From Candidatus Latescibacterota bacterium (GTDB lineage: Bacteria > Latescibacterota > UBA2968 > UBA8231), in the NCBI GenBank assembly GCA_964291625.2, contig OZ220089.1, positions 260,542 to 324,541 of the forward strand: a stretch of 64,000 bases of DNA, given 5' to 3'. Both the position numbers and the translations under genes were made by a program. Shown here piece after piece: positions 28,513 to 52,408 of the stretch (positions are counted from its first letter, which is position 1; each line of letters begins with the position of its first letter). Below the pieces are notes generated by a model, which made no database searches, was not told the DNA's origin, and saw nothing but the letters and a program-made list of their open reading frames with translations.

Positions 28513-28530
28513 GGAAGGAGTCTCCTCTTC

Positions 28531-30296: not shown

Positions 30297-31184
30297 TTAA
30301 TATAGTGTTTCGGGCGCGGCAAATGTAGATTTTATCCGGCCCCAGGTCGAGGACCGGACGAGGGTGGGGACCATGGGCGCCAGCCTGAGGTCGGTGAAGC
30401 GGTCGGCCAGCCGGAAGGCGTTGTATCCGCCGGAGAGGGACCACTTGGCGTCGAGCAGCTCCGAGTGCTCGTCGTAGTCGGCGAACTCCAGGTTGAACCC
30501 GATGACGTCGCCGGCGGCCAGCAGCCGGCGGCGGCTGAGGAAGTCGGCCGTCATGTCGACCTCGTCGAAGACGGCCAGACTGAACTCGTAGCTGACGACG
30601 GCCGGCCCCCCCTCGGAGCCCTCCACGGCCATCGCCGCCCGGGTATACGCTCCGTCGGGCTCGGAGTACCATGCGGCGGCGGAGAAGTTCACGAGAAAGT
30701 CCCCGTCCTCGTGAGGCCCTGCCAGCACGAAGTGGCTCGCCTGGGCGCCGTTGCGCTCGAGCTGCTCGCTCTGGCTCAGGTCGCTGAAGTCGGCGTACTG
30801 GCCTCCGGAGTGGTCGCCGTCGACGAAGATCTCCAGATCGTCGTCCTGGAAGATGCGGGTGGTGGCCGTCCCTTGGGGGCGGTCGACCTGGTGGATGTCG
30901 TCGCGGACCTGGGCGGCGAGGTAGATCCGATTGGTGTGCGGGCTCCAGCCGATCCATACCAGGATGTCCAGATCCTCGGCGTCGGCAGGAGCTTCATCCA
31001 CGAGATCGACGAAGTCCTCCGTCGTCAGCGTCGCCCGGCCGGCCTGCGCCCAGTCCCCCAGCTGGCCGTCCACCTCGGGGGCCGCGCCCTCCGGGAACTG
31101 GAGGGCCGCCACCTCCCGGCCTTCGGGCAGGTGGCCGCTGGCCGACGACGCGGCCAGCAGGACGGCCAGACAGAGGGCTCGCAT
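30297..31184 (-). CDS. secreted carbohydrate-binding-family-9-like (CBM9/DOMON-like) protein
   Basis: Real part of ORF 30297..31559. ATG at 31184 (MRALCLAVLLAASSASG) or at 31220. Pattern EVDGQLGDWAQAG ... RIYLAAQVRDDI ... FQDDDLEIFVDGDHSGG resembles CBM9-like modules. Confidence 0.55.
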   Translation of the reverse strand: MRALCLAVLLAASSASGHLPEGREVAALQFPEGAAPEVDGQLGDWAQAGRATLTTEDFVDLVDEAPADAEDLDILVWIGWSPHTNRIYLAAQVRDDIHQVDRPQGTATTRIFQDDDLEIFVDGDHSGGQYADFSDLSQSEQLERNGAQASHFVLAGPHEDGDFLVNFSAAAWYSEPDGAYTRAAMAVEGSEGGPAVVSYEFSLAVFDEVDMTADFLSRRRLLAAGDVIGFNLEFADYDEHSELLDAKWSLSGGYNAFRLADRFTDLRLAPMVPTLVRSSTWGRIKSTFAAPETLY

Positions 31185-31426
31185 GCCGGCCGGAGCCGAG
31201 TTGTGGCGCGCGCAGGTCATGGTCGATGCCGGCGGCTGCCCACTGGAGAGGATATCCAGTCGAGGGGGATGATCGCGGATCGGTCGCGCGTAAGATAGCC
31301 CCCTGCCGGGGGCCGGCAACCGGCTTCGGCCGCACCGGCCGGACGCTCCGCGGCCCCGTCCCGCGACGTGCCCCGGGTATGGGTGTCTTGCCCCTCTGCG
31401 GCGCCTCCTTAGGTTCGGTCGGACCG

Positions 31427-32911: not shown

Positions 32912-32918
32912 CGCTGAC

Positions 32919-34664: not shown

Positions 34665-37283
34665 CTACGGCTCTATGCCCGCGTAGATGGTGATGAAGCC
34701 TCGCGTCCGGGTCTTCACCGGCTCGAACCGGAGGTCGCGGCGGCTGACCTCGAAACCGAGGGTGGTGGTCAGCAGGTAGCCCTGGTAGTCGGACAGGTTC
34801 ATGATCTGCACCGTCGTCGTCAGCCCCCTGTAGGAGGGGCTGGCCCCGGGGGGCACCGGGTCCCGCAGCTGGTTGAAGACCTCGTACTCCACGCCCCCTT
34901 CGACGAAGCTCTTCTGCATGATCGGGTGGCGGAGGACGATCATGAAGAGCTCGGTCAACTCCTGGCGGCGCGACTCTTCCCGGGCCACCGGGGCCGAGCG
35001 CGACCACTCGCTCTTCCACCGGGGTGTGACGAGCGTCTGCCCGAGGCTCCAGCTGTAGTGGGCCTTGTTGATCACCCCGAGGAACCAGGACGACCGGCGC
35101 TGGCCCCGCAGCTCCAGGTCGAGGTCGTCGTCGACCTGCCGCCACCAGGTCCACTTCACCTTGTTGTCCAGGGAGAGATCGCCCCTCCGGTGCTGCCAGC
35201 CCGCCCAGGTCGTGTTCACCCAGGTGTCCTGCGCCGCCAGCGGGTCGAGGACGGGGAAGAGATCCCCCCGGGCGTTGGGCAGCTGCACCCACTGCAGCAG
35301 GTCGTCGCGGATCGTGTCCCGGACCCGGCGCAGGTCCTGGAAGAGACGCAGACGCCCCCGGGCGGCGGTGTTCCAGTCGACGGCGAGCTGTCCGTAGTTG
35401 GCCCGGTTGTGGCGGTCGTCGGAGATCTGCTCCACCTCCATGCGGCCCAGGGTGAGGCGGATGTCGGGCCCGACGTGGAAGCCGCCGTAGAGGTTGAAGC
35501 CCTGCTGGTCGCGCCGGTAGGGGAAGTCGGGCCGCTCGTCGTTCTCGAAGCGGTCCACCGTGCCGTTGTGGTTGGCGTCGACGCCGTAGAGGTACGCCGG
35601 GCGGTCGGCGAAGTAGCGCAGGAAGGGCTCCTCCCAGTCGGGGAGCAGGTTCTGGCGCTCCTCGTTGTCGTTCTGGTTGAAGTCCCAGATGCGGTCGTTG
35701 TTCTCGTCGAGCCCCGGGAAGACGTCCTCGTCCCCCGCGCTCGAGCCCTTGCGGCGCCAGTCCGGAGCCCTGTCGTAGTCGTCGTTGTCCTCGACGAACT
35801 CGTAGATCTCGAAGAGGTTGTCGTAGTCCGGCACCGAGGTCTCCTTCTCCACGGTGGCGAAGGAGGTGGAGTACCCGGGGTCCATGCCGAAGGCCTCGAG
35901 GAGGCCGAACCACGGGTAGTCCTTGCGGGAGACGTTGAGCAGCCACCCCAGGGACCGGTCCCGGGCGGTCTCGTGGCGCTCCCGGTGCGGGTTGGGGTAC
36001 TTGCGGTAGCGGTGGTTGAGGTTGACCTCGAGGTAGCCGTCGAGCCCGTGGAGGTCCGTCGTCTGCACCGTGAAGCCGGCGATCTGGTTGCCCGTGGGCA
36101 TGCCGTAGTCGAAGCGCAGGACGCGCTGGTTGGAGCCGTCCCTGACGTTGCCCCGGGCCCTGGCGAGGGGCAGAAAGACGACGACGTCGTCGGCGTTGAC
36201 CTGGCGGTCGGAGGCGATGTCGATGCGGTAGTCGTTGGCCACCACCAGCTCGACCTCGACGCGCTCGATCTCCGTCGGGTCGGGTCCCGCGTAGGTGCGG
36301 TCGCCGAAGTCGTAGGTGACGACGATCTCGTCGCCGTCCGCCGCCAGGAACCCGGCCCGCTGCAGGCCGCCCTCCACGAGGGGGCGGAAGCCGATCTCGG
36401 AGGCGCGGACGGTGCCGCCGTCGAGGTCGTGGATCCGCAGGTCCGAGGAGAACAGGGCGCCCCCGGAGCCGTCGCCGGGAGAGTCGTCGGAGATGCGCAC
36501 CTGGATGCGGTTGACGGTGCGGAAGTTCTGGCCCTCCGAGAGCACGCCGGAGATGATGTCGCTACCGAAGCCGTCGAGCTGGGTGACCGAGTGGTGGGCG
36601 TTGACGTAGGTGCCGCCCACGACCAGGAAGTCGCCGACCTGGGACTCCATCCGGCCCCCGAAGAGGTTGGTGTTGCTGGTGCGCCCCTCCGGCAGGAACG
36701 AGGGCGAGTTGGGCTCGTTGATGCGCGACAGGAGGAGGGTGACGGCGTGCTTGTCGGAGGCGAAGTCCCACTGCAGGCCGTTGAACTCCGGCTTGCTGAA
36801 GGTCATCGGCGTAAGGGTCGTGCGGATGCGGTTGCCCACGGTGACCGCCAGGTGGTACTGCCCCTTGTGATCGGAAGCCACGGCGAGGCTCGAGAACCAG
36901 CCGCTGAAGCGGCCCGTCTTCTCCAGCACGCTGCCGAAGGGCACCGAGTTCTGCTGGCGCCAGTCGTAGACCAGCCAGCCGCGGGTCAGCAGGTTGCCGT
37001 AGGCATCGTACCAGTAGTCCCCCTCCAGCGACGTGGAGACGTAGCGCTGGTAGTTCTGGCGGGCGTAGTTGGAGTACTGCCACTGCTTCCACTGGTACTC
37101 CGCGTAGAGCTCCTGGGGCACGTACCACTTGCGCAGGGCCGGGTCGAGGGCGTCGAAGATCACCCCCGGCCCCGTGGGCTCGAAGCTGACCCGGCCGCCG
37201 CGCTTGACCGTGCCCAGGCGGGCGCCGTAGTCCTGGGCCCCGGCGGCGGCGGCCAGCAGCAGAATCGTCAGTATCCGCACCAT
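34665..37283 (-). CDS. family-B large secreted/outer-membrane protein (872 aa), unknown family, paralog of 39241..41958
   Basis: Real part of ORF 34665..38792. ATG at 37283 (MVRILTILLLAAAAGAQ signal peptide). Aromatic-rich, beta-strand-like composition. Blocks shared with the paralog: VANDYRIDIAS, DYGMPTGN, RYPNP, PDWEEPFLRYFADRP, GVDANHNGTVDRFENDERPDFPYRRDQQGFNLYG. Confidence 0.75.
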   Translation of the reverse strand: MVRILTILLLAAAAGAQDYGARLGTVKRGGRVSFEPTGPGVIFDALDPALRKWYVPQELYAEYQWKQWQYSNYARQNYQRYVSTSLEGDYWYDAYGNLLTRGWLVYDWRQQNSVPFGSVLEKTGRFSGWFSSLAVASDHKGQYHLAVTVGNRIRTTLTPMTFSKPEFNGLQWDFASDKHAVTLLLSRINEPNSPSFLPEGRTSNTNLFGGRMESQVGDFLVVGGTYVNAHHSVTQLDGFGSDIISGVLSEGQNFRTVNRIQVRISDDSPGDGSGGALFSSDLRIHDLDGGTVRASEIGFRPLVEGGLQRAGFLAADGDEIVVTYDFGDRTYAGPDPTEIERVEVELVVANDYRIDIASDRQVNADDVVVFLPLARARGNVRDGSNQRVLRFDYGMPTGNQIAGFTVQTTDLHGLDGYLEVNLNHRYRKYPNPHRERHETARDRSLGWLLNVSRKDYPWFGLLEAFGMDPGYSTSFATVEKETSVPDYDNLFEIYEFVEDNDDYDRAPDWRRKGSSAGDEDVFPGLDENNDRIWDFNQNDNEERQNLLPDWEEPFLRYFADRPAYLYGVDANHNGTVDRFENDERPDFPYRRDQQGFNLYGGFHVGPDIRLTLGRMEVEQISDDRHNRANYGQLAVDWNTAARGRLRLFQDLRRVRDTIRDDLLQWVQLPNARGDLFPVLDPLAAQDTWVNTTWAGWQHRRGDLSLDNKVKWTWWRQVDDDLDLELRGQRRSSWFLGVINKAHYSWSLGQTLVTPRWKSEWSRSAPVAREESRRQELTELFMIVLRHPIMQKSFVEGGVEYEVFNQLRDPVPPGASPSYRGLTTTVQIMNLSDYQGYLLTTTLGFEVSRRDLRFEPVKTRTRGFITIYAGIEP

Positions 37284-37300
37284 CCCCTTCTCCCCGCTCT

Positions 37301-39244
37301 TCAGTAGGCCACGGCGAGAACGCCGTGGTGGTCCTCGGCAAAGGCGTCGGCGTCGATCCGCAGGCGCCAGATATAGGTGCCCGGCGCCAGGGGGCGGCCG
37401 TCGGCGCCGCGGCCGTCCCACAGGTATTCCGAGGGCCCCAGGCCGTGGAGCCCGAGGTCGGCGTGGGCCACGCGCCGGCCGGAGAGATCGAAGAGCTCGA
37501 AGCGCACCGGGGCCCTGTCGGTCAGTTGCAGCAGGTTGAACTGCACCCGCAGTCCGTCGTTGAGGCCGTCTCCGTTGGGCGTCACCACCCGGGTGGAGAG
37601 GGCGATCTGTCCCACGAGGCGGCCGATCTGCTCCTCCGGGATGGCCACGAAGAGACCGGACAGCTCGTCGTGGTCGCCGGGCCCGAAGTCGGCGGCATCG
37701 CCGCCCTCGAGGGGCTGGGGCACGGAGGGATAGCGGCTGTTGATGGCGCGGCCCGAGAACGTGGTCCCGAAGCGGAACACCGGCAGATCGAAGGTGAACT
37801 CGAGGACGTCCCCCGCCCCGGAGATGAGGGGCAGGCCGATGCGGAAGGCGTCGTGCCTCGAGAACAGGACCTCCGCCTCCAGGGCCTCGCCGTTCAACCG
37901 CACCTCGCGCACCCGCTCCATGGGGACCGTCGTGTCCACCTCGAGCTGGTCGAAGCCGAGGACCGCTCCCGCCCGGCCCACGCGGACGGCGTAGCGGAAG
38001 CTGGCCGGCTCCTCGACCTGCGCGAGTCGCGGATAGACCTCCGCCCGCAGGGTGTCGGCGATCGGCGGCCTCAGATAGGGGAAGGAGATGCTGTCCACCT
38101 GCCGGGTGTCGAAGAGGCGGCCGGCGAACTCCAGCCGGAACTGCACCCAGCGGCGCGGGATCGGGGCGGTGACCGGCGCCCCGAGGGCCGCCGACTTCCA
38201 GGGGCTCCAGCTGTCGACGTCCTCGACCACCCCGGCGCGGTCCTGGGACTCGAGGTCCCGGTACTCCTCCGGGGTGATCTCGGCGAGGATGGTGCTCTCC
38301 GGATCCTCCGGGTCGGGCACGCGGCGCCGGAAGACCAGCGGCGTGTCGTCGTTGCCCGTGCGCACTCGCACCCTCATCTCGGAGAACGCGGGCGGCCCGG
38401 CGATCTCCTCCACCCAGCGCAGCGGCCCGATGGAGGCCCGCCCCCCGAGGTCGATCAGGTCCGAGTAGTAGACCCCTCCGTCCAGGTACCCGGTGCCGTA
38501 GACCTCCAGCTCGTCCACCTCGAAGGGCCGCTCGCTCAGGGAGCGCAGCTTCACCTGGCGCACGTAGCGCGGGTCCACGCGCACGTCGACGACGGGGTCG
38601 GTGTTGTTGGTGACCCGCTCCACGAGGATGTCCGGACTGCCGGCGGCGCGATCCGTCTGCCGCGGGTTGATCCACACCTCGTAGGCGCGCAGGTAGTCGT
38701 CGTGGAAGGGCGTCTCCGGCGTGGCCGCGACGGTGTTGCGCGGATAGAAGCGGATGCGCTCGACCCCCACCTGGCGCCCGAAGTCGAGCCACACCCAGAT
38801 CCCGAAACTGGTCAGGGTCGGCTCGAGGAGGGTCGGCTTGCGCTCGAAGGCCACGGTGTGGTCGCCGTTCACCAGCCCCTCCAGCTGCCTGCGCACCAGG
38901 GCGGAGGGCCGGCCGATGGAGTTCGGCGCCCGGATGCGGCCGCCCCTCTCGAGGACGAGGCCGGCGATGTTGGTCTCGCCGTCGTAGTACCGGGGGCTGA
39001 TCCAGCCCGGGCGATGGTCGAACTCGATGTCGGCGCCGGGGGCGTTCCCCGTGTCGAGGACCGCCCGGACGCCGGACTTCACCAGGTGGACGGGGTCTCC
39101 CCGGCCGCCCCCTTCGGCCCAGGAACGGCCGCCGTCCCCGAGGGTGTAGCGGCCGAGCTGGGCCCCGGCGCCGTCGGCGCAGGCCAGGACCGCCAGGGCG
39201 AGGGCCGCGGCGCCGGCCCGCCGGGTGCGGAGGCCGCGGCTCAC
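37301..39244 (-). CDS. family-A secreted protein: F5/8-type-C (discoidin)-like N-domain + FlgD-Ig-like C-terminal domain (647 aa)
   Basis: Real part of ORF 37301..39457. GTG at 39244 overlaps the upstream stop as GTGA (VSRGLRTRRAGAAALALAVLACADGAGAQ). N-domain: LVNGDHTVAF...FGIWVWLDFGRQVGVERIRFYPRN...FEVDELEVYG. C-terminus: VVTPNGDGLNDGLRVQFNLL...FELFDLSGRRV...WDGRGADGRPLAPGTYIWRLRI...GVLAVAY. Confidence 0.75.
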   Translation of the reverse strand: MSRGLRTRRAGAAALALAVLACADGAGAQLGRYTLGDGGRSWAEGGGRGDPVHLVKSGVRAVLDTGNAPGADIEFDHRPGWISPRYYDGETNIAGLVLERGGRIRAPNSIGRPSALVRRQLEGLVNGDHTVAFERKPTLLEPTLTSFGIWVWLDFGRQVGVERIRFYPRNTVAATPETPFHDDYLRAYEVWINPRQTDRAAGSPDILVERVTNNTDPVVDVRVDPRYVRQVKLRSLSERPFEVDELEVYGTGYLDGGVYYSDLIDLGGRASIGPLRWVEEIAGPPAFSEMRVRVRTGNDDTPLVFRRRVPDPEDPESTILAEITPEEYRDLESQDRAGVVEDVDSWSPWKSAALGAPVTAPIPRRWVQFRLEFAGRLFDTRQVDSISFPYLRPPIADTLRAEVYPRLAQVEEPASFRYAVRVGRAGAVLGFDQLEVDTTVPMERVREVRLNGEALEAEVLFSRHDAFRIGLPLISGAGDVLEFTFDLPVFRFGTTFSGRAINSRYPSVPQPLEGGDAADFGPGDHDELSGLFVAIPEEQIGRLVGQIALSTRVVTPNGDGLNDGLRVQFNLLQLTDRAPVRFELFDLSGRRVAHADLGLHGLGPSEYLWDGRGADGRPLAPGTYIWRLRIDADAFAEDHHGVLAVAY

Positions 39245-41958
39245 TGCAGCCCCGCGTTCATGCTCACGAAGAGCAGCGACGAGCGTTCGGCCGGTCCCGA
39301 CTCCGGGGCGCGGTCTCCTACCTGGATGCCGCCGCGCGTGACCAGCTGGTAGCCCTGGTAGCCGACCCGGTTGATCACCTGCACGATCAGGGTTCGGGCC
39401 GTGAAGCCGCTGTCGAGCTCCCGGCGCTCCCCCTCCAGCAGCCAGCCCCGGGTCCACTCCAGGCCGAGCTGCAGCTCGGTGTCGAAGAGTTGCTTACCGT
39501 AGCGGGCGTAGTAGTTGACGCTGGTCAGCTCGGAGAGCAGCGGCTGCCGCCACATGAGGAAGAGGGACTCCTCCAGGCTGCGGGCCGGGGGCCGCCGGGC
39601 GTCGTAGGGGCGGTCGGCGCGGTACTCGCTCTTCCAGCGCGGCTCCAGCAGTCCCCGGCCCACCGGGATCGACCACTCGGCCCGGTTGATCAGGCCCAGG
39701 AACCCCGACCTCACCCGCCTCTCCTCCAGGCGCACCTCGTCCTCGTCCCGGCGCTGCCGGAAGGTCTCCCACTTGAACCGGTGGAAGAGGCGCACGCCCC
39801 GTCCCGGCCGCTGATCGAGGTCGGCGTAGAAGGTGTTGCGCCAGGTGTCCCGGGAGGGCAGCAGGTCCCGGTCGTCCTCCATGCGCCCCGTCGAGCCGCT
39901 CGGCTGCACCCAGGTCTGCAGATGATCGGGGATGTCGTCGCGCACCGAGGCGCCGAAGTCGAAGAGGCGGAGGCGGGAGCGCCCCAGGCGCCCGGTCCAG
40001 GCGAGCATGGCGTACCACGACTCCGTCCTGCCGTCGCCGGAGATCAGGCGCATGCGCTGGCGGCCGGCCACGAGGCGGGCGTCGGGGGTGACGAAGAGCT
40101 TGCCGTGGAGGTTGAAGCCGCGGTGGTCGCGCCGGTAGGGGTAGTCGGCATGCAGGTCGTTCTCGAAGGGGTCGGCGGTGCCGTTGTGGTTCATGTCGAC
40201 GCCGAAGAGGAACTCGGGCCGGTCCGACCGGAAGCGCAGGAAGGGCTCCTCGTAGTCGGGAACCAGGTTGCGGTTGTAGTTGAGGGAGACCGCCACCGGC
40301 TCTCCCGGCCGCGCGAAGGCCCCTGCCGGGCGGCGGGTGTTGTTCTGGTTGTAGTCGTAGATGTAGTCGCGGTTGAAGTCGACGCCGGGGAAGGCGATCC
40401 CGCCCGAACCGGTCTGCCACGGCCGCGACCACTCGGGGACGGCGTCGTGGTCGTCGTCGTCGTCGACCAGCTCGTAGAGCATGGGCACGGGGGCCTTGTA
40501 CTGGATCAGGCCGTTGCCGAGGGTCAGCCAGTGGTTGGTGCTGTAGGCGTCGTCCATGGAGAACGTCTCCAGGAACAGGCCCCACGGATAGAGGTTCCAG
40601 GCGGCGATGCCGTAGGCGGCCCAGGCGGTGCGCACCATCTCGTGGTGCCGGCTCAGCCGCGGATTGGGATACCTCCGGTGCTGGCGGTTGAGGACCGTCT
40701 CCCCCTGCACCGACAGACCGTGCCAGTCCACCAGGTCCCAGTCGAAGCCGACCAGCTCGTTGGCCGTGGGCAGGCCGTAGTCGAGGAGCAGGACGCGGCC
40801 GTTGCTCTCGTCCCGGACGTTGCCCGCCGCCCGCGCGTAGGGGAGGAAGACCGTCTCCGGGTTGCGCAGGCCGTCCGTCTGGAGATTCGAGGCGAGCTCG
40901 ATCCGGTAGTCGTTGGCCACGGCCAGCTCCACGGCGGCCGCCGTCAGCGCCCTCGGGTCGAGGCCGAGCTCGTGCAGGCCCCCCAGGTCGTACTCCAGGA
41001 GCAGGCGCTCCGACCCGTCCACCACCAGGGCGCCTTCGCGCAGGCGCCCTCCCTCGATCAACGGAAGGAGGCCGAGGTCCCGGCCGCTGATGCGCACCCC
41101 GTTGGTGTCGGTGAAGACGATGTCGTGGCGGAAGACCCGGGCGCCGCCGACCCCGTCCGCCGGCGAGTCGTCCCGGACCTGCACCCAGAGCTTGTCCGGG
41201 GTACGGTTCTGATTGCTGGTGAGCACGCCGGCCAGCGGGTTGCCGGCCCGGAACTCCGGCTCGGTGTTGGAGTTGTGCAGGTTCACGTAGGTCAGCCCGA
41301 AGCTGCCGGCCGCGAAGGGGACGTAGCCCAGCCGGCCGCCCATCAGGTGGGTCACGTTCCGGCGGGGGCCGGTGGGCTGGCTCGGCCGGGAGAGGAGCAG
41401 GGTGCTCTCGAGCCGGTCCCTGGCATAGTCGAGGCGCACCCCCTCGAAGCGGGGCTTGCGCAAGGTCAGGGGCGTGAGCTGCGCGTCGAGGACACTGCCC
41501 ATCATGAGGCGGTAGGTCTCCCCGCCCCGCCGGTCCGAGGCGATGGCGAGCCCCTGGAAGGCTCCCGGGAACTGAGGCCACAGGATGTCCGAGCCCTCCC
41601 GCGACGGCTGCACCTGCTCCCAGGAGTAGACCAGCCAGCCGCGGCCCAGGTGCTCGCCGAAGGAGTCGTACCACTCCTCCCCCGCCAGGAACGGGTCCAG
41701 GTAGCGCAGGTAGCGGTCGCGGGCGTAGTTGGCGCCGGTTTCGTACCAGTGGGCGGCGTAGGTCCCGGCCAGGCTTCGGGAGGCGTACCACTTGTGCAGG
41801 GCCGGAGTCGTGTAGTCCACCTCGAAGCGCGGGGACAGGTCGGCCAAGGCCCGCGTGGGGTGACTCTGTCCCTCCACCAGGGGCGGGAAGCCCCCGGCCA
41901 GGAGCAGGGCCGCCCACAGGGCCGCACGGGGCCCCCGACCGGTCGCCGGAGCGGGCAT
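39241..41958 (-). CDS. family-B large secreted/outer-membrane protein (905 aa), paralog of 34665..37283
   Basis: ORF 39241..41958. Signal peptide. Shared blocks: VANDYRIELAS, DYGLPTAN, RYPNP, PDYEEPFLRFRSDRP, GVDMNHNGTADPFENDLHADYPYRRDHRGFNLHG. Its start overlaps the upstream stop (TGATG). Confidence 0.75.
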   Translation of the reverse strand: MPAPATGRGPRAALWAALLLAGGFPPLVEGQSHPTRALADLSPRFEVDYTTPALHKWYASRSLAGTYAAHWYETGANYARDRYLRYLDPFLAGEEWYDSFGEHLGRGWLVYSWEQVQPSREGSDILWPQFPGAFQGLAIASDRRGGETYRLMMGSVLDAQLTPLTLRKPRFEGVRLDYARDRLESTLLLSRPSQPTGPRRNVTHLMGGRLGYVPFAAGSFGLTYVNLHNSNTEPEFRAGNPLAGVLTSNQNRTPDKLWVQVRDDSPADGVGGARVFRHDIVFTDTNGVRISGRDLGLLPLIEGGRLREGALVVDGSERLLLEYDLGGLHELGLDPRALTAAAVELAVANDYRIELASNLQTDGLRNPETVFLPYARAAGNVRDESNGRVLLLDYGLPTANELVGFDWDLVDWHGLSVQGETVLNRQHRRYPNPRLSRHHEMVRTAWAAYGIAAWNLYPWGLFLETFSMDDAYSTNHWLTLGNGLIQYKAPVPMLYELVDDDDDHDAVPEWSRPWQTGSGGIAFPGVDFNRDYIYDYNQNNTRRPAGAFARPGEPVAVSLNYNRNLVPDYEEPFLRFRSDRPEFLFGVDMNHNGTADPFENDLHADYPYRRDHRGFNLHGKLFVTPDARLVAGRQRMRLISGDGRTESWYAMLAWTGRLGRSRLRLFDFGASVRDDIPDHLQTWVQPSGSTGRMEDDRDLLPSRDTWRNTFYADLDQRPGRGVRLFHRFKWETFRQRRDEDEVRLEERRVRSGFLGLINRAEWSIPVGRGLLEPRWKSEYRADRPYDARRPPARSLEESLFLMWRQPLLSELTSVNYYARYGKQLFDTELQLGLEWTRGWLLEGERRELDSGFTARTLIVQVINRVGYQGYQLVTRGGIQVGDRAPESGPAERSSLLFVSMNAGLQ

Positions 41959-44460: not shown

Positions 44461-46272
44461 TCAGTAGGCCAGTTCCACCACGCCCCGGCGCCGGCCGGTG
44501 CCGCCGTCGGCATGCACGCGCAGCTCGTAGAGGTAGAGGCCGGGAGGGACCCGGCGGCCGCTGCTGTCGAGACCGTCCCAGGCGGCGGTGAGGGTGCCGG
44601 CGCCGTGCTCCGCCTCCCAGGCCCGGACCAGGGGGCGGCCGTCGACAGCGAAGATGTCGAGGGTCAGCCTCGCCGGTTCCATGAGCTTGAGGAGGGTGAA
44701 GGTCAGCTCGAGCCGGTCGTTGACGCCGTCGGCGTTCGGGGTCGTCACGGGGCTGGCGGCCCTCAGGTTGGAGATCAGGGACAGGCGCCCCGCTGCCGCC
44801 CCGTGGCGGACGACCAGACCGCCTCCGGGCTCGCCGTCGATGTCGGCGGGGCGCGCGACCTGGTAGGCCACCCTCGATCCCCCCTCCTCGGTGCGCCGGT
44901 CGATGGCCTGCACCTCGAACCTCGTGCGCTCGTGGAAGACCGTGGCCGTGAACTCCACCTGCAGGAAGCTGCCGTCCTGCACCACCCGGCGGGGCAGGTT
45001 GACGGTGAAGCCGGTGCCCGGCTCGACGTCGATGAAGGGCAGGACCTCCAGGTCGTCGACGCGGATGCTTTGGACCTCGCCGATCTCGGCCGCCGTCCTT
45101 ACCTGCAACTGCCGGAAACCGGTGTCCCGGTGAGACTCGGAGCCGGTGCGGTCCAGGTGGACCTGAAGGGAGAGGGTGAAGGGGCTCTCCACCCCGGCCC
45201 GCGCCTCCAGGGGCGAGATCTCGGCCGCCAGGTCCCGGGCGACCGGTGGATGGATGTACTCGAACCGCAGCTCCCGCAGGCCGGCGCCGGGTTCCGTCAG
45301 GGTGATCTGGAACTGCAGGTAGCGTTTCAGGGGTGGCGAGCGCACGAGTCCGTCGGTGACCGGCTCCCATGGGCTCCAGGCCGGATTGGGCTCGACCGGC
45401 CCCCTGTCCTCCGGCGGGGCGTTCTCCCAGCCCGCCTTGCTGTACTGGATCACGTCGCCGCCCTGGATCAGGTAGTAGAGGAGGGGGCTCCGGTCCGGCC
45501 CGGTGCGGGTGCGCACCACCACGGGCGCGGTGGAGATGTCGCCGCCCTCGTAGAGCACGCGTCCCCACACGGGCTCCGGCCGGCCGGCCCGCAGCGGCTG
45601 GGACTCGTACTCCCCCACGGGGACCGTGCCGTCCGAGTAGACCTCCAGCTCGGCGATCTCCCAGGCGCGGTCGACCTGCGGCTCCAGGGCCAGCAGGCGC
45701 GCCTCCACGCTGGGGAAGCGCTTGTCCACCACGGGGGAGGTGTTCTCGTTGGGGGCCTTGAAGAACATCAGCCGGCGGGAGTCGGCCAGGGGGTCGAGAC
45801 TCTGCGCCGCGGACAGGGTGAACTCCTGCAGGAACCGGTTGCGGTTGCGGAAGTCGAGGCGGGGGAAGAACCGGACGCGGTTCATACGGAAGGTGGCCCC
45901 CAGGTCGACCCACAACGTGGAGGACCGCTCCACGCCCTCCTGCAGGTCGGGATCGAAGAAGGTGGTCGGATCGCCGTCGAAGAGCGCTTCGCCGCCGGGC
46001 AGCGGCGTGAACCCCCTCTCCGGGTCCGAGTACAGCACCCGTCCGCCGCGCTCGCCGAGGGTGGCGGTCAGGTTCGCGTTGGCCTCCACGTCCCACATCC
46101 AGATGCCGTCCCCGGTGACGGCGACGTACCGCGAGGAGGACTCCGCCCCCCGCCAGGAGAGCTCGGGGCCGACGGAGACGTAGCGGACCTCGCCGGCCGA
46201 CGGTCGGCCCAGCGACAGGAGGGCGGCCGCTACCGCCAGCGGCCGCATCATCGCCAGGTGAGTTGCGGCCAT
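44461..46272 (-). CDS. family-A secreted protein: F5/8-type-C-like N-domain + FlgD-Ig-like C-terminal domain (603 aa)
   Basis: ATG at 46272 within ORF 44461..46317 (MAATHLAMMRPLAVAAALLSLG). N-domain: LFDGDPTTFFDPDLQEGVERSSTLWVDLGATFRMNRVRFFPR. Tail: VTTPNADGVNDRLELTFTLL...LDIFAVDGRPLV...WDGLDSSGRRVPPGLYLYELRV...GVVELAY. Confidence 0.75.
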   Translation of the reverse strand: MAATHLAMMRPLAVAAALLSLGRPSAGEVRYVSVGPELSWRGAESSSRYVAVTGDGIWMWDVEANANLTATLGERGGRVLYSDPERGFTPLPGGEALFDGDPTTFFDPDLQEGVERSSTLWVDLGATFRMNRVRFFPRLDFRNRNRFLQEFTLSAAQSLDPLADSRRLMFFKAPNENTSPVVDKRFPSVEARLLALEPQVDRAWEIAELEVYSDGTVPVGEYESQPLRAGRPEPVWGRVLYEGGDISTAPVVVRTRTGPDRSPLLYYLIQGGDVIQYSKAGWENAPPEDRGPVEPNPAWSPWEPVTDGLVRSPPLKRYLQFQITLTEPGAGLRELRFEYIHPPVARDLAAEISPLEARAGVESPFTLSLQVHLDRTGSESHRDTGFRQLQVRTAAEIGEVQSIRVDDLEVLPFIDVEPGTGFTVNLPRRVVQDGSFLQVEFTATVFHERTRFEVQAIDRRTEEGGSRVAYQVARPADIDGEPGGGLVVRHGAAAGRLSLISNLRAASPVTTPNADGVNDRLELTFTLLKLMEPARLTLDIFAVDGRPLVRAWEAEHGAGTLTAAWDGLDSSGRRVPPGLYLYELRVHADGGTGRRRGVVELAY

Positions 46273-46273
46273 C

Positions 46274-47233
46274 TCAGAACGGCGCCCAGTTCGGGTGCAG
46301 GTCGTCGTACGGATCATCGGTCACCCGCTCCTCGGCGCCGCCCTCGACGGGGACGATGTAGATGTCGTAGCGCGTCTCCACGTCGACCAGCCGGGCGAAG
46401 GCGATGCGGGTGCCGTCGGGAGACCAGGTGGGAGTCTCCTCCCAGGCCTCGCCGAAGGTCAGCTGCCGGGCGCCGCTGCCGTCGGCGGCCATGACCCAGA
46501 TGTGGCTGATGTCGAAATCGTCCGGATCCAGCGCGACATAGGCGATCCAGGCCCCGTCGGGCGACCACGAAGGTTGTCCGGCGTACTGGCCCTCCGGCGA
46601 GAGCCGCTCCGTGCCGCCGCCGGCCGGGTCCATGATGGTGATACCGTCCTCGCCGTCGTAGGCGATCGAGGCGCCGTCGGGCGACCACGCGGGCGACCGG
46701 CCCCACGGGGCCAGGGGCTCGTGGGTGAGCCTCTCCACGCCGCTGCCGTCGGCGTTCATGACGAAGACCTGCGGCCCCCTCCCTCCCCCGCCGCTGCGCT
46801 CGAAGGCGATGCGCTGGCCGTCGGGCGACCAGGCGGGAGCCGAGTCGTAGGCGTCGCCGCGCGTCAGGTTCACCGGGTTCCCGCCGTCGGCGTCCATGAC
46901 GTAGATCTCGAGGTCCCCGTCGCGGATCGAGCTGAAGGCCACCTTCGTCCCGTCCGGCGACCGGGCCGGCTGCTCGCCCCGGCGGGTGAAGTAGAGGGTT
47001 TCCAGGGAGTCGGGGAAGGTGCCGTCCGACTTCGGCAGACCGATCAGGCCCGAGGACAGGTTCACCACCTCGCCGCTCTCCAGGTCCAGGGAGTGCACCT
47101 CCAGGTCGCGCAGGTATTCGCTCTCGAGGCGCCGGTTCGAGGTGAACAGGAGCTGAGTAGCGTAGGCCGACCCGTCCGGCAGGACCACCTGCGCCGTGTC
47201 CTCCGGCTCCGGTGCCGTGAACTCCACGGTCAC
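46274..47233 (-). CDS. PD40 (TolB-like) beta-propeller protein; corresponds to the C-terminal two thirds of the LRR-PD40 paralogs (array copy 1, split)
   Basis: ORF 46274..47233, with GTG at 47233 overlapping the stop of 47230..47778 as GTGA. Repeats: PARSPDGTKVAFSS..DGDLEIYVMDADG, PAWSPDGQRIAFE, PAWSPDGASIAY, PSWSPDGAWIAY, PTWSPDGTRIAFA. In copies 2 and 3 the same sequence is fused in-frame to the LRR part. Confidence 0.65.
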   Translation of the reverse strand: MTVEFTAPEPEDTAQVVLPDGSAYATQLLFTSNRRLESEYLRDLEVHSLDLESGEVVNLSSGLIGLPKSDGTFPDSLETLYFTRRGEQPARSPDGTKVAFSSIRDGDLEIYVMDADGGNPVNLTRGDAYDSAPAWSPDGQRIAFERSGGGGRGPQVFVMNADGSGVERLTHEPLAPWGRSPAWSPDGASIAYDGEDGITIMDPAGGGTERLSPEGQYAGQPSWSPDGAWIAYVALDPDDFDISHIWVMAADGSGARQLTFGEAWEETPTWSPDGTRIAFARLVDVETRYDIYIVPVEGGAEERVTDDPYDDLHPNWAPF

Positions 47234-47778
47234 CCCCCCTCGCGGAGGGCGGCGGCCTGGGCCCGGGCCGCCTCGCTCAGCGGGTTGCCGGTGAGATCGA
47301 CGCTCTGCAGGCTGTCCAGACCCGCCAGGGCCGACACCTCCGCCACCTCGTTGTCGGCCAGCAAGAGCACCTGCAGGCCCTTCAGCGACTCCAGGGGCGT
47401 GACCTCCTCGACCCGGTTGCTCCCCAGGTCGAGGTAGCGCAGCCGCGTCAGCCCCGACAGCGGCGACAGGTCGCGGATCTCGTTGCCGTACAGGTCCAGG
47501 GCCTCCAGCCGGCTCAGCTGCTCGATGCCGTCCAGGTTCGCGATCCCCCGCTCCTTGGCCGTCAGCGAGACCAGCCCGGCCGCGTCGCCTGTCTCCCCCG
47601 CGGCTTCGGTCACCGCCGACTGCAGGGCCGAGTCCGCGAAGACCAGGGCGACGCCCGTGCCGCCCCCGGGGCCGGGGCCGACGGGCGGGTCGGGCTCGGA
47701 GCCGCAGCCGGCCAGCATCAGGACGGCCACCAGGGCCGCGAGCTTCCAGGTCATCACCATCGCAGGCGCTCCGGACAT
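47230..47778 (-). CDS. leucine-rich-repeat lipoprotein; corresponds to the N-terminal third of the LRR-PD40 paralogs (array copy 1, split)
   Basis: ATG at 47778 within ORF 47230..47856 (MSGAPAMVMTWKLAALVAVLMLAGCGS lipobox). 22-residue LRRs (LEALDLYGNEIRDLSPLSGLTRLRYLDLGSNRVEEVTPLESLKGLQVLLLADNEVAEVSALAGLDSLQSVDLTGNPL). It ends at a TGA created by a C7/G7 homopolymer. Confidence 0.65.
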   Translation of the reverse strand: MSGAPAMVMTWKLAALVAVLMLAGCGSEPDPPVGPGPGGGTGVALVFADSALQSAVTEAAGETGDAAGLVSLTAKERGIANLDGIEQLSRLEALDLYGNEIRDLSPLSGLTRLRYLDLGSNRVEEVTPLESLKGLQVLLLADNEVAEVSALAGLDSLQSVDLTGNPLSEAARAQAAALREGG

Positions 47779-47779
47779 C

Positions 47780-49309
47780 TCAGAACGGCGTCCAGTTGGG
47801 GTCCATGTCATCGTGGGGATCGTCGGTGACCCGCTCCTCGGCACCGCCCTCGACATCGACGATGTAGATGTCGTAGCGGATATCCTGCTCCGACTGCCGC
47901 GCGAAGGCGATCCGGGTGCCGTCGGGGGACCACGTCGGGTTGCTGTCCCAGGTCTCGGCGAAGGTCAGCTGCCGGGCGCCGCTGCCGTCGGCGCCCATGA
48001 CCCAGACGTGGCTGAAGTCCCTGGCCGTGTCCGCCTTGGTGTAGGCGATCCGTTCACCGTCCGGCGACCACGTCGGGCGCGTCCCCCCGAGGCCAGCCTG
48101 CGAGATGAGATGCAGGGATCCGCTGCCGAGCTCGAGGAGGTGGATTCCCCAGTCGGTCCCCATGGCGGAGACGCAGGCGATGGACGCGCCGTCGGGCGAC
48201 CACGCCGGCGAGCCGGCCCAGGGGGCCAGGGGTTCGTACGTGAGCTGCTCCACGCCGCTGCCGTCGGCGTTCATGACGAAGATGTGGGGCACCCCGCCGT
48301 CGCGTTCCGACACGAAGGCGATGCGCCGCCCGTCGGGCGACCAGGCGGGACCCGAGTCGAACGCGTCGTGGCGGGTGAGGTTCACCGGATCGCCTCCGTC
48401 CGCGTCCATGACATAGATCTCCATGTCGCCGTCCCGGAAGGAGGCGAAGACCACCCTCGTCCCGTCGGGCGACCGGGCCGGCTCCTCGCTGGTCCGCGAG
48501 GCGTAGTGCCGTTCCAGCGAGTCGGGAACCGAGCCGTTGGAAAAGGGGACGGCGGCCAGGACCGAGCACAGGTTCACGACCTCGCCGGTCTCCAGGTCCA
48601 GGGAATGCACCTCGCGGCTGGACAGGTAGCCGCCCTCGAGCCGCCGATTCGAGGAGAACAGGAGCACCGAGGCGCCCAGGGGAGGGGCCGGACCCTCCGG
48701 CGGGATCACCTCCACGCTGTCCTCCGCCTCCGGCACGGCGACCTCCACGGTCACGCCGCGCTCGCGGAAGGCGGCGGCCTGGGCCTGGGCCGCCTCGCTC
48801 AGCGGGTTGCCGGTGAGATCGACGCTCTGCAGGCTGTCCAGACCCGCCAGGGCCGACACCTCCGTCACCTCGTTGTCGGCCAGGAGCAGCACCTGCAGGC
48901 TCCTCAGCGACTCCAGGGGCGTGACCTCCTCGACCCGGTTGCTCCCCAGGTCGAGGTAGCGCAGCCGCGTCAGCCCCGACAGCGGCGACAGATCGCGGAT
49001 CTCGTTGCCGTACAGGTCCAGGGCCTCCAGTCGCGTCAGCTGCTCGATGCCGCCCAGGTCGGCGATCCCCCGCTCCTTGGCGGTCAGGGAGACCAGCCCG
49101 GCCGCGTCACCCGTCCCGGCCCCGACGGCGGCCTCCTCCACCGCCGCCTGCAGCGCCGAGTCCGCGAAGACCAGGGCGACGCCCGTGCCGCCCCCGGGGT
49201 CGGGGTCGGGCCCGATGGGGCCGTCCGGGTCCGAGCCGCAGCCGGCCAGGGCCAGGGCGGCCGCCAGGGCCGTGAGCTTCCGGGTCATCGTCGAGTGCGC
49301 TCCCGACAT
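47780..49309 (-). CDS. LRR + PD40 beta-propeller lipoprotein (array copy 2, 509 aa)
   Basis: ATG at 49309 within ORF 47780..49342 (MSGAHSTMTRKLTALAAALALAGCGS). Pro-rich linker, 5-6 LRRs, then PD40 repeats. Ends DDPHDDMDPNWTPF. Confidence 0.85.
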   Translation of the reverse strand: MSGAHSTMTRKLTALAAALALAGCGSDPDGPIGPDPDPGGGTGVALVFADSALQAAVEEAAVGAGTGDAAGLVSLTAKERGIADLGGIEQLTRLEALDLYGNEIRDLSPLSGLTRLRYLDLGSNRVEEVTPLESLRSLQVLLLADNEVTEVSALAGLDSLQSVDLTGNPLSEAAQAQAAAFRERGVTVEVAVPEAEDSVEVIPPEGPAPPLGASVLLFSSNRRLEGGYLSSREVHSLDLETGEVVNLCSVLAAVPFSNGSVPDSLERHYASRTSEEPARSPDGTRVVFASFRDGDMEIYVMDADGGDPVNLTRHDAFDSGPAWSPDGRRIAFVSERDGGVPHIFVMNADGSGVEQLTYEPLAPWAGSPAWSPDGASIACVSAMGTDWGIHLLELGSGSLHLISQAGLGGTRPTWSPDGERIAYTKADTARDFSHVWVMGADGSGARQLTFAETWDSNPTWSPDGTRIAFARQSEQDIRYDIYIVDVEGGAEERVTDDPHDDMDPNWTPF

Positions 49310-49310
49310 C

Positions 49311-50840
49311 TCAGAACGGCGTCCAGTTGGGGTGCATGTCATCGTGCGGATCGTCGGTCACCCGCTCCACGTCGCCGCCCTCCGCGGGGACGATGTAGAT
49401 GTCGTAGCGGGTCTCCTGCTCCGTCTGCCGCGCGAAGGCGATGCGGCGGCCGTCGGGGGACCACGTGGGGGTCCGGTCCCAGACCTCGGCAGAGGTCAGC
49501 TGCCTGGCGCCGCCGCCGTCGGCATCCATGACCCAGATGTGGCTGGAGTCGGTGGTCGTGTCGACGACGGTAAAGGCGATCCGGGCGCCGTCGGGCGACC
49601 ACGACGACTCCCCGCCCTCCGGGGAGAGAAGGCGCATCACTCCGCTGGCCAAGTCCAGCACGTAGATCCCTTGCACGCCTCCCTGGGACGAGAGACAGGC
49701 GATCGACGAGCCGTCGGGGGACCACGCGGGCCAGAAAACCCACGAGGCCTGGGGCTCGTCGGTGAGCTGCTCCACCCCGCCGCCGTCGGCGTCCATGACG
49801 AAGAGCTGGCCCAGCCGTCCTCCGTCGTTGCGGTTCGACACGAAGGCGATGCGCCCTCCGTCGGGCGACCAGGCCGGATACTGGTCATTCGCCGGGTGGC
49901 GCGTCAGGTTCACCGGGTCGCCGGCGGCGGCGTCCTGGACGTAGATCTCCTGGTCCCTGTCCCGGCGCGAGGTGAAGGCCACCCGGGTGCCGTCCGGCGA
50001 CCGGGCCGGTTCCTCGCTGCTTCGCGGGTGGTAGGCGGTCAGGGAGTCGGGCACGGTGCCGTCGGCCAGGGGGAGAACGGCCAGGGCCGGGGACAGGTTG
50101 ACCACCTCGCCGGTCTCCAGGTCCAGGGAGTGGACCTCGAGGCCGGAAAGGTAGGAACCCTTCGTGCGCCGGTTGGAGGAGAACAACAACTGCGAACCGC
50201 GCAGAGCACGGCCAGGCTCCCCGGGTGGTTCCTCGGGCGGGACCACCTCGACGCTGTCCTCCGGCTCCGGCTCCGGCGCGGTCAGCTCCACGGTCACGCC
50301 GCGCTCGCGCAGGGCGGCGGCCTGGACCCGGGCCGCCTCGCTCAGCGGGTTGCCCGTGAGATCCAGGCTCTGGAGGCTGTCCAGACCGGCGAGGGCGGAG
50401 ATCTCCGTCACCCCGTTGTCGGCCAGCAGCAGCACCCGCAGGCCCTTCAGCGACTCCAGGGGCGAGACCTCCTCGACCCGGTTGCTCCCCAGGTCGAGGT
50501 AGCGCAGCCGCGTCAGCCCCGACAGCGGCGACAGGTCGCGGATCTCGTTGCCGTACAGGTCCAGGGCCTCCAGCCGGGTCAGCTGCTCGATGCCGTCCAG
50601 GTTCGCGATCCCCCGCTCCTTGGCCGTCAGGGTGACCAGCCCGGCCGCGTCGATGGTCCCGGCCGCGACCTCGGCTTCGTCCACGGCCGCCTGCAGCGCC
50701 GAGTCCGCGAAGACCAGGGCGGCGCCCGCGCCACTCCCCGGGTCGGGATCGGGCCCGATGGGCGGGTCCGGCTCCGAGCCGCAGCCGGCCAGGGCGCACA
50801 GGACCAGGGCTCGCGTTGATGCCGCCGTCATGGACCTCAT
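49311..50840 (-). CDS. LRR + PD40 beta-propeller lipoprotein (array copy 3, 509 aa)
   Basis: Last 509 codons of ORF 49311..56636, ATG at 50840 (MRSMTAASTRALVLCALAGCGS). Same architecture as copy 2. Ends DDPHDDMHPNWTPF. Confidence 0.85.
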   Translation of the reverse strand: MRSMTAASTRALVLCALAGCGSEPDPPIGPDPDPGSGAGAALVFADSALQAAVDEAEVAAGTIDAAGLVTLTAKERGIANLDGIEQLTRLEALDLYGNEIRDLSPLSGLTRLRYLDLGSNRVEEVSPLESLKGLRVLLLADNGVTEISALAGLDSLQSLDLTGNPLSEAARVQAAALRERGVTVELTAPEPEPEDSVEVVPPEEPPGEPGRALRGSQLLFSSNRRTKGSYLSGLEVHSLDLETGEVVNLSPALAVLPLADGTVPDSLTAYHPRSSEEPARSPDGTRVAFTSRRDRDQEIYVQDAAAGDPVNLTRHPANDQYPAWSPDGGRIAFVSNRNDGGRLGQLFVMDADGGGVEQLTDEPQASWVFWPAWSPDGSSIACLSSQGGVQGIYVLDLASGVMRLLSPEGGESSWSPDGARIAFTVVDTTTDSSHIWVMDADGGGARQLTSAEVWDRTPTWSPDGRRIAFARQTEQETRYDIYIVPAEGGDVERVTDDPHDDMHPNWTPF

Positions 50841-52373
50841 CAGAAGGGCGCCCAGCACGGGTCCCTGTCGACGCCCGGATCGTCGGTGAGCTGCTCGCCG
50901 GCGCCCCCCTCCGCGGGGATGACGTAGAGGTCGTAGGCAATCCCTTCCGCCCGGTCCTCCCGCGCCAGGACGATGCGGGCGCCGTCGGGAGACCACCTGG
51001 GGGGGCCGCGCCGGAAGAACCGCCCCACGGTCAGCTGGCGGGCCTCCCCGCCCCGGGCGGGGATCTTCCACACCTGGCTCCTCGAATTCGACGGTCTCCA
51101 CGTAGGCGATCCAGCGGCCGTCCGGGGACCACGATGGCCCCCACGCCAGTCCGTCGTCGTCGGTGAGGAGCCGGGCCTCCCGGCTGGACAGGTCCAGGAC
51201 GAAGATCCCTGAAAAGCCGTGGCCGTCGTACTTGTTGAAGGCGATCGACGAGCCGTCCGGCGACCACGCCGGATGCTCGGCGCTTTGGCTCAGGGGATCT
51301 GAGGTCACCTGCTCCACGCCGCTGCCGGCGGCGTCCATGACGAAGATGTCGGTGTTGTTGCGCCAGGGCCGGATCTCGACGTCGCCGTTGCGGTCGGAGA
51401 CGAAGGCGATGCGCTCCCCGTCGGGCGACCAGGCGGGATTCGCGTCATAGGCCTGGTGAAGGGTGAGGTTCTCCGGCCGGCCGCCGTCGGCGTCCATGGC
51501 GTAGATCTCGTAGTTGCCGAAGTCCCGATACGAGGTGAAGGCGATCCTTCTCCCGTCGGGGGACTGGGCCGGCTCCACCCCGTGGCGCGGCGGCGGCCGC
51601 CCGCTGGAATCGTCCCCGGACAGGGGCGCCTCGGCCAGGGCTTCCGCCAAGTTGACGACCTCGCCAGTCCCCGAGTCCAGGGAATGCACCTCGAGGTCCC
51701 AGTCGTCCCCGGTCCGGCGGCTCGAGACGAAGACGATCGGCAGCTCCCCCAGGACGACCCCGCCCCCGCCCGGATCCTCCGGCTCCTCGGGCTCCGTGAT
51801 GTCCACGGTCACGCCCCGTTCCCGCAGCGCCGGCACCTGGGCGTCGACGGCGTCCCCGGTCAACGGGTTGCCCGTGAGGTCGACGCTGTTCAGGCTGTCG
51901 AGACCCGCCAGGGCGGAGATCTCCCTCACCTCGTTGTCGGCCAGCACCAGCACCTGAAGGCTCTTCAGCGACGCCAGGGGGGTCACCTCCTCCACCCGGT
52001 TGTTCCCGAGGTCGAGGTAGCGCAACCGTTTGAGCCCCGCCAGCGGCGACAGGTCCAGGATCTCGTTGCCGTACAGGTCCAGGGCCTCCAGTCGCTCCAG
52101 CTGCCCGATGGCGCCCAGGTCGGCGATACCCCGCTCCCTGGCGTTCAGGGAGACCAGCTCCTCCGCGCTTCCGGCAGCGGCCGCCGCGGCCTCTTCCACC
52201 GCCGCCTGCAGGGCCGAGTCGGCGAATACCAGGGCGACGCCGGTGGGGCCGACGGGATCGGGACCGGGACCGACGGCCGGGTCCGGCTCCGAGCCGCAGC
52301 CGGCCAGGACCCAGACGCAGACCGCCATCCGGGGGGTGGTCTCCACGATCCTCCGCAAGGTCGGAAAGTCCAT
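50840..52373 (-). pseudogene. LRR + PD40 lipoprotein (array copy 4, most divergent) interrupted by a frameshift near 51065-51085
   Basis: The frame of ORF 49311..56636 encodes MDFPTLRRIVETTPRMAVCVWVLAGCGS..., the LRRs and the PD40 repeats up to ...RWIAYVETVEFEEPG, then junk. The last propeller blade and conserved C-terminus (VWKIPARGGEARQLT...RWSPDGARIVLA...DDPGVDRDPCWAPF) are in ORF 50840..51073. The 1534-nt span is not a multiple of 3. An alternative ATG lies at 52328. Confidence 0.6.
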
Positions 52374-52408
52374 GATTATTAAGGGGTTATGGACAATTGT
52401 GGACTTAG

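Follow-up and report, generated by a model that had tools for sequence, protein, structure and literature searches.

A conserved Latescibacterota gene module pairs lectin-like exported proteins with a predicted new family of giant outer-membrane barrels

We analysed a window of 64,000 nucleotides (nt) from a Candidatus Latescibacterota bacterium (assembly GCA_964291625.2, contig OZ220089.1, positions 260,542 to 324,541), in which a 17.7-kb run of envelope protein genes occupies the minus strand from 52373 to 34665. The window is ~70 % G+C and its raw list of open reading frames (ORFs) is for that reason rich in artefacts; genes were defined through third-position GC (GC3) periodicity and their translations, not from that list. 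This yielded nine genes in the order G1-G2-G3-G4-A3-A2-B2-A1-B1 (Table 1), with each of the nine reading frames backed by a GC3 periodicity of ≥0.9. An earlier interpretation made from the letters of the DNA, hereafter the sequence-only reading, had placed the genes on this strand and in this order, and the translations and periodicity bear it out. The genes are closely packed. TGAGATG forms the G2/G3, G3/G4 and G4/A3 junctions, TGATG the G1/G2 and A2/B2 junctions, TGAATG the A3/A2 junction and GTGA the B2/A1 junction, and B1 is preceded by a 17-nt spacer with a GGAG-rich stretch; every junction quoted in the sequence-only reading was found. Between positions 34000 and 53999 a single sigma-70-like promoter match occurs, inside the 35-nt spacer upstream of G1, and terminator-like sites are not enriched across the region. 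Because the junctions are tight, terminators are not enriched and the sole promoter-like match precedes G1, the arrangement fits one transcription unit from G1 to B1, consistent with the single transcript that had been proposed.

The central proteins of this locus are B1 and B2, paralogues of 872 and 905 amino acids (aa) that share 37 % identity and carry visible signal peptides, as the sequence-only reading had described them. Neither matches a Pfam or NCBIfam model, 32 members of the family give no Pfam match even at E ≤ 1, and a B profile found no relative among PDB sequences; one of five distant members scanned gives a weak match to the SlpA_C family of Pfam. The AlphaFold2 (AF2) model of B1 (predicted local distance difference test score, pLDDT, 71.5; predicted template-modelling score, pTM, 0.70) has about 25-26 long antiparallel strands and an inserted beta domain at residues 259-375, with two poorly modelled regions, the N-terminal 110 residues and an acidic loop region at residues 499-590. 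The invariant acidic D/N loops of the latter region give EF-hand-like patterns such as DANHNGTVDRFE, which follows the canonical EF-hand pattern, and we propose that these loops bind calcium. When the B1 model was searched against the PDB with Foldseek, the matches were all large barrels of the outer membrane (SlpA, MtrB, LptD, SprA and ushers), with template-modelling (TM) scores of ~0.2. Since B has no known family and its fold matches are generic to large barrels, we predict that it represents a new family of giant outer-membrane beta-barrels; the modelled barrel and its outer-membrane matches also favour the role in the outer membrane that the sequence-only reading had given it.

Membership of B in the LptD, usher, SusC/TonB-dependent transporter, PorP/SprF and SlpA families was considered and rejected, the similarity being only that of large barrels in general. 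For PorP/SprF, neither PF11751 nor TIGR03519 matches, and B has 872-905 aa and ~26 predicted strands; for SusC and other TonB-dependent transporters, B again returned no Pfam match at E ≤ 1 and no PDB sequence relative.

The A proteins are of a different kind. A1, A2 and A3 begin with signal peptides, are 26-30 % identical to one another and end in a domain of ~100 residues that is marked by TPNGDGxND and WDG...PGxY motifs and a final AY. By its scores this C-terminal domain is borderline between two families: CHU_C (PF13585, cut-off 27) gives 27.0, 16.5 and 22.5 bits on A1, A2 and A3, and FlgD_ig (PF13860, cut-off 27) gives 27.9, 38.9 and 20.4 bits. Its closest PDB sequence relative is the Ig domain of FlgD (3osv, E = 2.9e-06). 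PF13585 is present in most of 120 A1 orthologues among the matches listed. For three A1 orthologues the name given by the NCBI annotation pipeline PGAP refers to a type-B or gliding C-terminal domain, some being called ‘T9SS type B sorting domain-containing protein’ (T9SS, type IX secretion system). A local hidden Markov model (HMM) confines this subtype of the domain to A1, A2 and A3 in the window and to A-like proteins more widely, with weaker relatives on FG-GAP proteins. The last 107 residues of A1, used as a query against the word index, gave an uninformative set of just 15 short fragments.

Ahead of this domain, A2 matches PF22633 (29.7 bits, cut-off 27.8), the only discoidin match above the Pfam cut-off among the A proteins, and an A3 orthologue weakly matches PF00754. 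The AF2 model of A1 (pLDDT 86) is all-beta. In a fold search its N-terminal sandwiches resemble neuropilin b1b2, factor VIII C domains, CBM32 and chitosan-binding modules (TM 0.75, normalised to the target), and strands 565-645 form a terminal Ig-like sandwich resembling Ig domains of PorU and FlgD. The A2 score and the A1 fold place A among F5/8 type C (discoidin)/CBM32 proteins, and in the model the Sec-exported A1 ends in an Ig-like beta-sandwich, a feature of type-B sorting. These predictions support A as a multi-domain, lectin-like, non-enzymatic exported protein. The sequence-only reading had assigned A a signal peptide, a discoidin-like domain and a FlgD-Ig-like C-terminal domain, and this make-up stands, except that the discoidin assignment rests on the A2 score and the A1 fold, not on Pfam matches in all three. 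Its further claim of a locus without a characterised counterpart is borne out for B but goes too far for A, whose C-terminal domain lies at the CHU_C/FlgD_ig border and carries the type-B name in some orthologues.

B genes are numerous, and A genes accompany them. At least 919 homologues of B1, all unnamed, occur in metagenome-assembled genomes (MAGs) labelled Latescibacterota, Gemmatimonadetes/Gemmatimonadota and Handelsmanbacteria, with ~60 % identity among the MAG homologues listed; an exact look-up of the B2 sequence of the window gave no record. A B profile search of 1.84 billion cluster representatives (50 % identity) recovered 1,015 clusters, of which 340 had E ≤ 1e-30, and species-level genomes contain 530 stretches with a B relative, several copies per chromosome. 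We sampled 83 related loci of ~20 kb each (numbered here with the prefix L), in which 99 B genes had enough upstream sequence. For 87 of these 99, the same strand carries an A gene that ends no more than 400 nt upstream, and the pairing is subfamily-specific, A1-like genes preceding B1-like genes (n = 55) and A2-like genes preceding B2-like genes (n = 24); this survey upholds the A–B pairing that had been noticed from its repetition in the window. Many Latescibacterota and ‘Gemmatimonadetes’ MAGs have precisely the order A3-A2-B2-A1-B1, at 57-75 % identity. A second common order is A2-B2-A1-B1-LRR lipoprotein-A3, and in other genomes, too, A3 comes after an LRR lipoprotein gene; because this arrangement keeps the two together, we regard the LRR lipoprotein and A3 as a conserved unit. 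Neither the module nor the B family is described in the literature that we searched, and a paper on sponge-associated Latescibacterota genomes does not mention the system.

The conserved module also extends further than the sequence-only reading had drawn it, to two families that we call F1 and F5. F1, whose CBM9-like match is weak, adjoins A/B genes in 49 of the 83 loci, and F5 follows F1 in 14. In the window, two convergent genes on the plus strand (31538..34655) encoding tetratricopeptide repeat (TPR) and FG-GAP/UnbV_ASPIC proteins separate B1 from F1, whereas F1 and F5 come directly after B1 in L008, L009, L012 and L017.

The four G proteins had been described as tandem lipoproteins combining leucine-rich repeats (LRRs) with a PD40 propeller, and this description is sound. 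In G2, the copy scanned, LRR_4/LRR_8 is followed by the PD40 propeller in Pfam, G1-G4 are paralogues with pairwise identities of 55-72 %, and all four have a LAGC lipobox. The TolB model (TIGR02800) reaches 168.3 bits against a cut-off of 343, with the match limited to the propeller, which falls short of membership; nor do the G proteins qualify as PorE-like, since they have the lipobox, LRR and PD40 but no TPR, CRD or OmpA_C. Relatives of G in other loci conserve the LRR part and have PD40 only in some lineages. LRR-PD40 fusions like those of the window also follow the five-gene A/B order in L085. The proposal that LRR and propeller proteins belong to the apparatus is thus partly sustained: LRR lipoproteins do recur beside the module, but the propeller is not conserved, and we rejected PD40 as a conserved partner for the reason that the LRR is the portion retained at related loci. 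As a separate observation, the isolate name COS4_bin_9 of L016, the closest relative of the window, resembles the names IRC4_bin_45 and SB0661_bin_36 among the matches, and such names may denote marine sponge microbiomes; if that origin is correct, the fourfold amplification of ‘eukaryotic-like’ LRR-PD40 lipoproteins may be a symbiont trait.

Three genes of this one operon, G1, G4 and A2, are frameshifted in the present assembly, which the sequence-only reading overlooked although its gene order and junctions were right. The ORF list splits G4 into pieces of 319 aa and 208 aa and masks G1 with an artefactual ORF of 2,441 aa. G4 has lost one base in a G7 run at 47239, where a 96.5 % identical strain (L016, ‘Gemmatimonadaceae bacterium COS4_bin_9’) reads GCGCGGCG, and A2 has gained one G. 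The strain comparison covers G4 and A2, and in L016 both genes are intact at exactly the affected sites; in G1, identity to G2-G4 (55-57 %) continues across the frameshift. The frameshifts are either assembly errors, very recent lesions or decay, or a variable tract, and the intact sites in L016 lead us to an assembly error or a very recent lesion for G4 and A2.

Table 1. Genes and features of the module and its surroundings, in window coordinates.
Feature	Position	Strand	Description
Spacer GH42/G1	52374..52408	-	35 nt, AT-rich (37 % GC), likely operon start
G1	52373..50840	-	LRR + PD40 lipoprotein paralogue, ~511 aa conceptual; frame 0 to frame 2 near 51080
G2	50840..49311	-	Intact LRR + PD40 (TolB-like propeller) lipoprotein, 509 aa, LAGC lipobox
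G3	49309..47780	-	Intact LRR + PD40 lipoprotein, 509 aa
G4	47778..46274	-	LRR + PD40 lipoprotein, ~501 aa conceptual; 1-nt deletion in G7 run at 47239
A3	46272..44461	-	603-aa exported protein; CHU_C/FlgD_ig-like C-terminal domain
A2	44460..41958	-	~834-aa exported protein; F5/8-type-C-like domains and FlgD_ig/CHU_C-like C-terminal domain; 1-nt insertion at 42382
B2	41958..39241	-	905 aa, predicted new giant-barrel family, cognate to A2
A1	39244..37301	-	GTG start; 647-aa exported protein
B1	37283..34665	-	872 aa, predicted new giant-barrel family
F1	30297..31247	-	~300-aa secreted CBM9-like protein, C-terminal tag STWGRIKSTF
F5	29511..30263	-	~250-aa probable lipoprotein
Candidate PorV/PorQ-family small outer-membrane barrel	28531..29457	-	Follows F5; module membership uncertain

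The interpretation that we prefer, and in which we place about even confidence, is that these modules encode outer-membrane surface complexes in which the A C-terminal domain lets a B barrel export or retain the A lectins cognate to it, for the capture of glycans. B would lie in the outer membrane as a barrel of ~26 strands with calcium-binding loops, and A, exported by Sec and composed of discoidin/CBM32-like and Ig-like domains with no enzyme domain, would be recognised by the cognate barrel through its Ig-like C-terminal domain. B would then carry A across the outer membrane, anchor it on the outer face, or do both; we propose this step because the C-terminal domain, the adjacent cognate barrel and the nearby repeat-domain lipoprotein mirror the logic of type-B C-terminal-domain proteins. 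A1 would work with B1 and A2, perhaps together with A3, with B2, while the LRR(-PD40) lipoproteins and the CBM9-like F1 would be accessory subunits, and the assembled device would bind glycans or glycoconjugates outside the cell. The gene order, the paralogy, the fold predictions, the conserved synteny and the lack of a known family for B are direct results; the physical A–B interaction, the role of the C-terminal domain, the surface location, the binding of glycans and any dependence on a T9SS are inferences. From the DNA, B had been suggested as the membrane component, and A as the displayed binder, of an outer-membrane apparatus; the fold predictions, including the discoidin/CBM32-like and Ig-like folds of A1, and the conserved synteny lend this support. 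The glycan-capture role is speculative, with some indirect support from the CBM32-like and CBM9-like folds and from one module architecture that lies near a CUT1 transporter and an MR_MLE dehydratase.

The likeness to type IX secretion is one of functional analogy, not of family assignment. In Bacteroidota, type-B C-terminal-domain proteins bind cognate PorP/SprF barrels for their secretion and anchoring, and PorE lipoproteins attach to those barrels (PMC9143113, PMC12618676); T9SSs have been suggested for other phyla of the Fibrobacterota-Chlorobiota-Bacteroidota (FCB) group (PMC11285876). The module resembles this scheme in that A is an exported non-lipoprotein cargo ending in an Ig-like domain with a borderline match to CHU_C, the cargo gene adjoins that of its cognate outer-membrane barrel, genomes contain several such pairs, the gene for a repeat-domain lipoprotein lies close by, and the organisms belong to the FCB group. 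It differs in its lipoprotein, G having LRRs with or without PD40 in place of the TPR, CRD and OmpA_C of PorE. No T9SS core gene (SprA/Sov, PorK/L/M/N) was found in the window or in the flanks examined, a search that covered the ~20-kb loci and not whole genomes. The FlgD relationship of the A C-terminal domain, for which the FlgD Ig domain is the best PDB sequence relative and A2 scores above the PF13860 cut-off, comes without a flagellar context or a FlgD N-terminal domain at the locus, and the Ig domain is here the C-terminal module of large secreted proteins. Likewise, B shares with the MtrB-MtrA/C and LptD-LptE systems a predicted strand number of ~26, best fold matches that include MtrB and LptD, and an adjacent partner gene, but there is no sequence relation, no cytochrome or lipopolysaccharide-transport domain is present, B is multi-copy whereas those genes are single and essential, and the TM-scores are ~0.2.

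Several results weigh against holding or export of A by B on the type-B pattern. TIGR04131 gives only 15.4 bits on A1 of the window, well under its cut-off of 35, and we found no literature linking Latescibacterota with type IX secretion. B, with its 870-905 aa, ~26 strands and EF-hand-like loops, shows no similarity to PorP/SprF barrels, which have ~300 aa (~33 kDa) and 14 strands. The N-terminal 110 residues of B are highly conserved, yet they are modelled with low confidence. Finally, the loci that we class as type iii lie beside a CUT1 ATP-binding cassette (ABC) transporter (SBP_bac_1 and permeases) and an MR_MLE sugar-acid dehydratase, a neighbourhood that suits uptake through a channel no less than display on a scaffold.

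This last point leads to the possibility that B is an oligosaccharide import channel fed by A and F1 as surface glycan binders, in the manner of SusC with SusD/E/F, and that the modules are equivalents of polysaccharide utilization loci. We consider such uptake unlikely but still a live alternative, and rank it ahead of the two treated below. The modules share with SusC/SusD systems their multiple copies, with several diversified modules per genome, and the combination of a large outer-membrane barrel with surface proteins of carbohydrate-binding type, here the CBM32/discoidin-like A and the weakly CBM9-like F1; some of them, such as the type-iii loci, sit near sugar transporters and catabolic genes, and ExbB and ExbD are encoded in the extended syntenic block of the window. 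At E ≤ 1, however, B shows neither a plug nor a TonB-dependent receptor signature. A, for its part, is unlike SusD in not being a TPR lipoprotein, and its C-terminal domain suggests a secretion or anchoring signal in place of lipid anchoring. The ExbBD linkage was seen only in the window, L016 and L017. A gene for a glycoside hydrolase of family 42 (GH42) does lie 35 nt upstream of G1, and the sequence-only reading had tied it to a glycan-capture function of the locus, but this link did not survive. GH42 is cytoplasmic and lacks a signal peptide, a promoter-like site lies in the AT-rich spacer that sets it apart from G1, and it is absent from all 83 related loci. We therefore rejected GH42 as a part of the module; the loci are mostly without glycoside hydrolases, none being present among the flanking ORFs scanned.

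Two further explanations rank as less likely than uptake. B might act as an autonomous translocon that exports the neighbouring A through its C-terminal domain, as in two-partner secretion and with no T9SS involved. The one-to-one or one-to-few, subfamily-specific cognate gene pairs would suit such a device, as would a wide barrel whose fold matches include ushers and SprA, and both the lack of T9SS core genes and the silence of the literature on T9SS in this phylum point the same way, with the reservation that the gene search stopped at the window and flanks. Export of folded multi-domain cargo of 600-830 aa normally takes a very large, gated pore, however, and neither POTRA nor any other known domain for recruiting substrates is present in B. 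The module also lacks a consistently linked chaperone or energy source, and elsewhere we know of CHU_C-type domains only in the company of a T9SS. We judge this explanation improbable, a little more so than Sus-like uptake. It is more improbable still that B with bound A forms a static surface layer or an array that stabilises the outer membrane, like SlpA of Deinococcus, and captures no ligand. The SlpA barrel is the best fold match of B, one distant B member weakly matches SlpA_C, the B1 family is highly conserved (the ~60 % identity given above), and the predicted calcium-binding loops could mediate lattice contacts. Against a lattice, TM-scores of ~0.2 are what large barrels give in general, SLH and coiled-coil domains are missing from B, it would be unusual for an S-layer to be encoded by many diversified paralogous modules in one genome, and the domains of A are typical ligand-binding folds. 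The A–B display complex thus remains our preferred interpretation.

Among the accessory families, F1 carries a strictly C-terminal [ST]xWGxIKxxF tag. A slightly broader form, [ST]xWGx[IVL]Kxx[FY], is common to two unrelated families of small secreted proteins, F1 and a 169-aa protein (61735..62244, minus strand) encoded beside a PD40 lipoprotein. Related loci contain 17 matches, every one within 15 residues of the stop codon, and the tag may be a sorting or docking signal. In one Latescibacterota chromosome (L001/L002, 1..9946) a single A-B pair is preceded by a tandem array of six F1 paralogues and by a gene for a prepilin peptidase (Peptidase_A24). In L060-L069 (for example L068, 2089..21084) the architecture is F1-A-B-A-A-DUF6785, with a divergent CUT1 ABC sugar transporter, a PPIC-type peptidyl-prolyl isomerase (PPIase) lipoprotein, an isochorismatase-family gene and an MR_MLE-family dehydratase as neighbours.

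Other genes also recur beside A/B, namely those for a PPIC-type PPIase lipoprotein, a TMTC-like O-mannosyltransferase with TPR repeats and a DUF6785/6784 membrane protein; TMTC-like O-mannosyltransferases of this kind are frequent near B genes. FG-GAP/ASPIC and TPR genes recur near B loci elsewhere, and some FG-GAP proteins (in L003) have a weaker FlgD_ig-type C-terminal domain. Within the window, a minus-strand block at 57158..61644 encodes two lipoprotein-like proteins of no recognised family (290 aa and 224 aa), a PMT_2 glycosyltransferase and a PD40 lipoprotein, and this block also adjoins A/B modules in L058 and L072-L081.

Downstream of F5, the candidate PorV/PorQ-family gene scores 84.8 bits on NF033709 (cut-off 90; E = 8.1e-24) in a full-length alignment, and it follows F5 in the window, L008, L016 and L017. 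It opens a minus-strand block (22640..29457) that continues with a 1,103-aa TPR protein with YbgF/BamD-like repeats, ExbB, ExbD and DUF4159. In L017 this order of PorV-like, TPR, ExbBD and DUF4159 genes comes directly after the five A/B genes and F1-F5. The block could be an energised envelope machine tied to the module or a mere neighbour; since the linkage occurs only in close relatives, we did not adopt it as a core part.

The uncultured Latescibacterota live widely in sediments and commonly as symbionts of sponges, and we know of no account of the mode in which their surfaces interact with polymers or hosts. The module described here is among the most conserved and most repeated envelope gene sets of these bacteria, and its central protein has no family assignment, which makes the B family a clear target for a new Pfam/NCBIfam model and for structural work. 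The B family and the module are undescribed, while the combination of a C-terminal-domain cargo with a cognate outer-membrane barrel is already known in kind. There is a moderate chance that the module is a distinct machine. A stronger form of this idea, which we regard as doubtful, is that A, B, the LRR lipoprotein and F1/F5 make up a self-contained secretion-and-display (or glycan-uptake) system of Latescibacterota and their relatives, in which a new calcium-binding barrel of ~26 strands both translocates and anchors lectins with the C-terminal domain independently of the canonical T9SS translocon; if true, it would be a new class of outer-membrane machine. Should the A–B model hold, the rule of a C-terminal-domain cargo with a cognate barrel would reach beyond Bacteroidota to a different and much larger barrel, and would offer a handle on adhesion or glycan capture in Latescibacterota.

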